64,000 bases of DNA from assembly GCF_003334765.1 (NCBI RefSeq), contig NZ_QOWT01000012.1, one strand, 5' to 3'. Position numbers and translations under genes: made by a program. The stretch is from Escherichia coli (GTDB taxonomy: Bacteria > Pseudomonadota > Gammaproteobacteria > Enterobacterales > Enterobacteriaceae). Shown here piece by piece: positions 29,793 to 29,979 of this stretch (positions are counted from its first letter, which is position 1; each line of letters begins with the position of its first letter). A model generated the notes under the pieces. That model saw only the letters and a program-made list of their open reading frames with translations. It searched no databases and was not told where the DNA came from.

Positions 29793-29868
29793 GCGGGAAT
29801 AGCTCAGTTGGTAGAGCACGACCTTGCCAAGGTCGGGGTCGCGAGTTCGAGTCTCGTTTCCCGCTCCA
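29793..29868 (+). tRNA. glyV: tRNA-Gly (anticodon GCC)
   Basis: 76-nt GCGGGAATAGCTCAGTTGGTAGAGCACGACCTTGCCAAGGTCGGGGTCGCGAGTTCGAGTCTCGTTTCCCGCTCCA; cloverleaf evident. Confidence 0.95.
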
Positions 29869-29903
29869 AAATTTGAAAGTGCTGTAAGGCACAGACCACC
29901 CAA

Positions 29904-29979
29904 GCGGGAATAGCTCAGTTGGTAGAGCACGACCTTGCCAAGGTCGGGGTCGCGAGTTCGAGTCTCGTTTCCCGCTCCA
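29904..29979 (+). tRNA. glyY: tRNA-Gly (anticodon GCC), identical second copy
   Basis: Exact 76-nt duplicate of the preceding tRNA, 35-nt spacer; assignment as glyX versus glyY is arbitrary. Confidence 0.95.

Follow-up and report, generated by a model that had tools for sequence, protein, structure and literature searches.

A two-copy form of the glyV-glyX-glyY tRNA-Gly(GCC) array in Escherichia coli, very probably derived from a three-copy ancestor by loss of one 112-bp unit

In Escherichia coli K-12, tRNA-Gly3 (anticodon GCC) is encoded by the tandem genes glyV, glyX and glyY, which occupy positions 4392360-4392658 of the MG1655 chromosome; the original prediction was thus right to take three tandem copies as the K-12 state. 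The glyV-glyX spacer (s1) is 36 nt long and begins with AAATTTGAAAAGTGCTGCAAAGCAC, and the glyX-glyY spacer (s2) is 35 nt long and begins with AAATTTGAAAGTGCTGTAAGGCAC, so that the array can be written V-s1(36)-X-s2(35)-Y. The two spacers differ from each other at three positions. In a survey of tRNA gene number in E. coli, the array is presented as a set of identical tandem copies generated by duplication within the genome (PMC4539685). Its product decodes the common glycine codons GGC and GGU, and a passage of PMC7461829 that cites Dong et al. (1996) puts it at ~6.8% of cellular tRNA. Deletion of glyV and glyX (two of the four tRNA-Gly(GCC) genes) lowers the level of this tRNA and reduces the translation of reporters rich in GGU and GGC (PMC7461829). 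Deletion of the whole glyVXY array is viable, and losing tRNA gene redundancy carries a cost in rich media and is often an advantage in poor ones (PMC9981150). The promoter of the operon has been studied experimentally, its terminator (TglyV-X-Y) overlaps DnaA box 1 of datA, and read-through transcription from glyV-X-Y controls the binding of IHF at datA, whose role has been described in the same work (PMC10950094).

The sequence analyzed here, referred to as the window, is a 64-kb stretch of E. coli DNA. Over its whole length ARAGORN calls exactly two tRNA genes, both tRNA-Gly on the plus strand with the anticodon gcc at position 34, and both score 69.1 bits with Rfam RF00005, of which the gathering score is 29. 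Each is an exact string match to K-12 glyV, glyX and glyY, with an encoded 3' CCA. The original prediction, which described two identical 76-nt tRNA-Gly genes 35 nt apart, proves exact in both coordinates and description by ARAGORN, Rfam and the sequence itself (Table 1). The gene order is orn, the tRNA-Gly array, the small ORF yjeV and queG. orn is the conserved upstream neighbor of the array, and this adjacency is kept in most of the Enterobacterales loci fetched. A tandem array directly after orn and before queG/datA identifies the locus as glyV-X-Y, with two tandem copies in the window in place of three. A chance repeat was rejected, as the two identical 76-mers start 111 nt apart; so were a pseudogene, since both copies are intact, and insertion of a prophage or integrative element at a tRNA gene, because the flanks are collinear with K-12. 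Positions 1-59 of the window lie inside another tRNA gene, pheU (tRNA-Phe, minus strand in K-12), which is not called by ARAGORN because it is truncated at the window start.

Table 1. Features of the tRNA-Gly(GCC) array and its neighborhood in the window
Feature	Position	Strand	Basis and remarks
orn (oligoribonuclease)	29037-29582	+	translation is the 181-aa Orn; annotated as orn in matching genomes
Putative glyV-X-Y promoter, TTGCAG-16 nt-TATAAT	29708-29735	+	read by eye; same in K-12
tRNA-Gly(GCC) copy 1	29793-29868	+	ARAGORN, Rfam RF00005; leader is that of glyV; body is glyV, glyX or a hybrid
Interval holding the deletion crossover	29793-29878		tRNA body plus spacer bases 1-10, as far as the first s1/s2 difference
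Spacer, 35 nt	29869-29903	+	identical to the K-12 glyX-glyY spacer s2 (alignment, string comparison)
tRNA-Gly(GCC) copy 2	29904-29979	+	ARAGORN, Rfam; glyY equivalent, followed by the K-12 trailer (identical)
Terminator/attenuator hairpin with U-rich tail	30002-30038	+	RNA fold -14.3 kcal/mol, z = -2.3
Start of the datA DnaA-titration locus	30065-30235	+	pattern search; unchanged by the deletion

The window is nearly identical to MG1655 around the array, with two SNPs in the 29.8 kb upstream and four in the next 10 kb, and the leader and trailer of the array are identical to those of K-12. Alignment against reference genomes had been proposed as a check in the original prediction, and against K-12 the only thing missing at the locus is exactly one 112-bp unit, composed of one 76-nt tRNA gene and the 36-nt s1. 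A whole period (112 bp = 76 + 36) is therefore lost between identical bounding repeats with unchanged flanks, as is characteristic of repeat-mediated changes in copy number. The spacer of the window carries all three s2 diagnostic states, and the crossover therefore lies 5' of the A-run difference. Farther from the array, beyond ~49.7 kb (six SNPs to that point), there are ~260 differences from K-12 between 49.8 and 63.9 kb; this cluster suggests a recombination tract. At its far end, 69 nt of the window (63932-64000) fail to align with the K-12 sequence upstream of yjfZ.

These observations make it very probable that the window carries a genuine, inherited two-copy allele of glyV-glyX-glyY, formed when one 112-bp unit was lost from a three-copy ancestor by homology-mediated exchange. 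The original prediction had also read the locus as the loss of one unit by recombination between the repeats, and this is supported by the absence of the 112-bp unit, by the near-identical K-12 flanks and by the three-copy majority among relatives. Short tandem direct repeats in E. coli are deleted and duplicated by replication slippage or by unequal exchange between sister chromosomes, and with repeats of ~100 bp this can proceed independently of RecA. In the window, the exchange would have taken place between the identical glyV and glyX sequences by either of these routes, slippage during replication or unequal sister-chromosome recombination. It would have removed a 76-nt tRNA gene together with the 36-nt glyV-glyX spacer and left the order promoter, tRNA, glyX/Y-type spacer, tRNA and terminator.

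Four other genomes share the haplotype of the window. CEA106S, EC359 and CY34 are 100% identical to it over 24.5 kb and BE311 is nearly identical over the same length; all carry the same two-copy array, and the records of this haplotype (CEA106S, EC359/CY34, BE311) come from human and pig sources. The original prediction had held that its reading would fall if the reference strain for this sequence also had two copies. This condition is in part realized: the genomes that match exactly (CEA106S, EC359 and CY34) do have two. The two-copy array is therefore an inherited allele of a lineage present in many strains, not peculiar to the window and very probably not an assembly collapse. Other copy numbers occur on near-identical backgrounds. 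GF124.3 has an almost identical flanking haplotype, yet its array, by direct check of the spacer, retains s1 in place of s2 (V-s1-Y, as opposed to V-s2-Y in the window), and 23CRST014 appears to be V-s1-Y too, its match being 1 nt longer than that of the window. PRO_A-1412 has three copies and an additional 121-nt insert. A single copy has been deposited for the K-12 derivatives MC1061 and OV2 and for three FELIX isolates (including FELIX_MS78). The array therefore varies among backgrounds that are only a few SNPs apart. Two further records are unusual in other ways. In NWU_4 (~1370-1640 of the fetched locus), a 46-nt deletion starts in the second tRNA, which loses its 3' end, and runs through the spacer to the third nucleotide of the third tRNA. 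A single tRNA-Gly is annotated there, and either a true non-homologous deletion or a faulty assembly could account for this. In OHT76-1 (NZ_CP135244.1), the orn-linked array was not found in the chromosome record searched with the tRNA queries, and the sole match is glyW, at pgsA-glyW-cysT-leuZ.

The array was then surveyed in 5,426 complete E. coli genomes with junction-specific queries. Copy number was read from how many places matched in each record, a proxy validated on seven directly inspected loci. The 151-nt query leader-tRNA-s2 matches 95 records at at least 99% identity, with 22 records (18 genomes) below 80% coverage. Among its best 60 full-length matches, 30 have three places (a two-copy array plus glyW), and the other 30 have four, indicating a three-copy array of which the first spacer is also s2. 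The query s1-tRNA-trailer matches 150 records at at least 99%, and its best 40 matches comprise 29 two-copy arrays, 10 three-copy arrays and one of another class. Extrapolation from these best matches to the longer lists gives estimates of ~30-43 V-s2-Y arrays and ~90 V-s1-Y arrays, or ~120-135 two-copy arrays of both forms in the 5,426 genomes (~2.3%). Single-copy arrays are found in 15 genomes, including MC1061, OV2 and the O104:H4 outbreak reference 2011C-3493, and are either real losses or collapsed assemblies. Four copies are present in 16 genomes (RM10740, for example, with spacers s1, s1 and s2) and five in one, UTAK-1. In ~60-70 genomes, apparently more than the 17 with four or five copies, a three-copy array has the same spacer twice (s1,s1 or s2,s2); examples are STK78-E, a J53 derivative and, by its four matching places, CUPF12. 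Such homogenized arrays reflect either gene conversion or a two-copy array that expanded again. The population thus contains both deletion products as well as the duplications reciprocal to them, as would be the case for a repeat-mediated variant. The loss of one period, the two deletion products, the duplications and the homogenized arrays together fit the signature expected of exchange between tandem repeats, and the counts fit recurrent deletion and duplication at this locus in E. coli.

Other ways of counting were set aside. Annotation counts ("tRNA-Gly x2" or "x3" under a 1-kb match) were rejected as a measure of copy number, as MG1655 itself is listed as x2; they are unreliable because pieces of a match are split and joined differently depending on the strand and on the 121-nt insert. 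Subtracting the insert-bearing genomes from those with at least 80% coverage also failed to give a two-copy count (626 genomes against 1,551). Spacer-specific 40-mers undercount, because other phylogroups carry spacer variants. The 121-nt insert lies directly after s1, which makes a spacer of 157 nt. Of the 5,426 complete genomes, 1,551 carry its junction, and neither the window nor K-12 has it. It is located at 1406-1526 of the locus fetched from PRO_A-1412 (L003), is also present in loci L010 and L067, and resembles an ERIC repeat, with 18 of 22 positions matching the ERIC2 primer. Spacers of ~145-158 nt also occur in Citrobacter and Klebsiella loci.

The polarity of the change is indicated by the distribution of the three-copy form. 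Three copies are present in K-12 (phylogroup A), HM670 (B2), an ST69 strain, O157 and many others, with spacers that vary slightly between E. coli lineages. Species-representative genomes were also scanned for tandem pairs of tRNA-Gly(GCC), and among the 120 loci listed the succession of orn and the tRNA-Gly(GCC) array is conserved across the Enterobacterales. Of the listed loci, 53 from Enterobacterales hold an orn-adjacent, uncut array, and 42 of these have three copies, nine have two, one has one and one has four, the low counts being in part underestimates, since variant copies escape the exact-core criterion (in L029, for instance, ARAGORN detects three). Three copies are the norm in the sampled E. 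coli lineages and in 42 of 53 Enterobacterales loci, and are therefore ancestral for E. coli, with two copies derived. In Aeromonas species, orn is followed by seven tRNA-Gly(GCC) genes in tandem, so that the same orn-linked locus is greatly expanded in another family.

Two explanations deny that a unit was lost. Merging by the assembler of two near-identical 112-bp units from a three-copy source strain would give the same sequence, and tandem repeats are a known cause of such collapse. Odd assemblies do occur at this locus, such as NWU_4 with its fusion of two tRNAs, and K-12 laboratory derivatives have been deposited with one copy. An array of only ~300 bp is, however, easily spanned by single long reads, and the three differences between the K-12 spacers allow assemblers to tell the units apart. 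Several separate records of human and pig origin also share the allele on an identical haplotype of 24.5 kb, and both deletion products, as well as reciprocal four-copy arrays, are seen in many unrelated strains; we regard a collapsed assembly as very unlikely. Still less credible, to the point of being nearly dismissible, is the reverse polarity, in which two copies are ancestral and K-12 and most strains gained the third by duplication. Duplications do take place here, as the four- and five-copy arrays attest, and some species representatives are two-copy (Enterobacter cloacae DSM 26481 and Enterobacter sp. Ag1, for example). Against this, every E. coli lineage sampled has the three-copy array, its two spacers distinct from each other and lineage-specific, and three copies are also found in 42 of the 53 related species listed; the flanks of the window are near-identical to those of three-copy K-12, and the two-copy arrays come in two forms scattered over diverse strains.

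Two further readings accept the loss and concern selection. The deletion may have been adaptive, a lower tRNA-Gly(GCC) dosage being favored, for instance, during slow growth or under poor nutrients, instead of neutral or slightly harmful. Deletions of redundant tRNA genes, including glyVXY, are often beneficial in poor media although costly in rich ones (PMC9981150), and the allele persists in a clone recovered from several hosts. Two-copy arrays nevertheless make up only ~2% of genomes with no large fixed clade seen, three copies are conserved across the Enterobacterales, and the homogenized three-copy arrays could be re-expanded two-copy ones, which would imply selection back to three; an adaptive origin is accordingly improbable. 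Slightly less doubtful, but still unlikely, is the idea that the orn-linked array is a dosage locus that mutates fast and is kept at three copies by stabilizing selection, with the homogenized arrays as re-expanded two-copy ones. These arrays (~60-70) outnumber the four- and five-copy arrays (17) several-fold, although the two-copy pool is ~40 times smaller than the three-copy pool. The loss of one unit by exchange between repeats, an ordinary recurrent variant produced by a textbook mechanism, remains the preferred reading.

The operon that remains after the deletion retains its signals. A G+C-rich discriminator, GCGCCTCC, follows the putative promoter, and together they span 29708-29743. A consensus promoter scan gave no call for the putative promoter, of which the -35 hexamer matches 3 of 6 positions; sequence and literature combined would place the promoter studied experimentally (PMC10950094) exactly at the tabulated position. 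A hairpin in the 35-nt spacer (GUGCU-GUAA-GGCAC, -6.6 kcal/mol) is not significant against shuffled sequences. The terminator hairpin overlaps a DnaA-box-like ATATCCACA at 29998-30006. Given the identity to K-12 and the intact promoter and terminator, the two-copy operon should be transcribed and processed normally, and its tRNAs are presumably expressed and charged with glycine as are the products of the identical K-12 genes.

The array lies directly upstream of datA, the DnaA-inactivating locus. The only perfect TTATNCACA DnaA boxes found by pattern search in the 64-kb window are at 30065-30073 and 30227-30235, and near-consensus boxes are at 29998 (overlapping the terminator) and at 30240 (minus strand). 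The deletion leaves the datA elements intact and brings the promoter 112 bp nearer to them, and we see no reason to expect an effect on datA. As a speculation, changes in copy number might slightly alter the control of replication initiation through read-through and IHF at datA.

The tRNA-Gly(GCC) sequence matches at three places altogether in genomes identical to the window, compared with four genes in K-12. Judging from these genomes, the source genome would likewise have three such genes, the two described here and glyW. The step from four genes to three probably causes a modest drop in the supply of tRNA for GGC and GGU codons, and from the published deletion effects the loss of one gene would be expected to matter little and to an extent that depends on conditions. 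The influence on decoding capacity anticipated in the original prediction is thus plausible, though it should be modest. Copy variants of this kind would add small fitness differences between strains if fast growth is limited by the dosage of tRNA genes. The allele is of little importance in itself, and it is already known in the sense that it has been deposited and annotated in public genomes. It does serve as a caution that this locus holds a variable set of tRNA-Gly(GCC) genes in E. coli: one, two, three, four and five copies are all found, a wider range than the published "three or four in all E. coli".

Compared with the K-12 glyV-glyX-glyY operon, the window has the same promoter region, leader, trailer, terminator, tRNA sequence and s2, and differs in having two genes in place of three, without one tRNA and the 36-nt s1. 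In its array structure it is the same as the V-s2-Y alleles of complete genomes (CEA106S, EC359, CY34, BE311, 2013C-3277 and others), which are annotated in RefSeq with two tRNA-Gly genes and show no difference from the window at the locus. The V-s1-Y allele, carried by the E. coli W derivative KO11FL, GF124.3, SMBL and others, likewise has two identical tRNAs at the same locus and has lost one unit, but keeps the 36-nt glyV-glyX spacer where the window keeps the 35-nt one. Its retention of s1 points to an exchange between glyX and glyY, and therefore to an event independent of that in the window. Relative to the earlier survey of tRNA gene number (PMC4539685), the larger genome set used here adds two-copy (~2%) and one-copy (15 genomes) arrays. 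As in other deletions and duplications between bacterial tandem repeats, what is missing from the window is an exact period between identical repeats.
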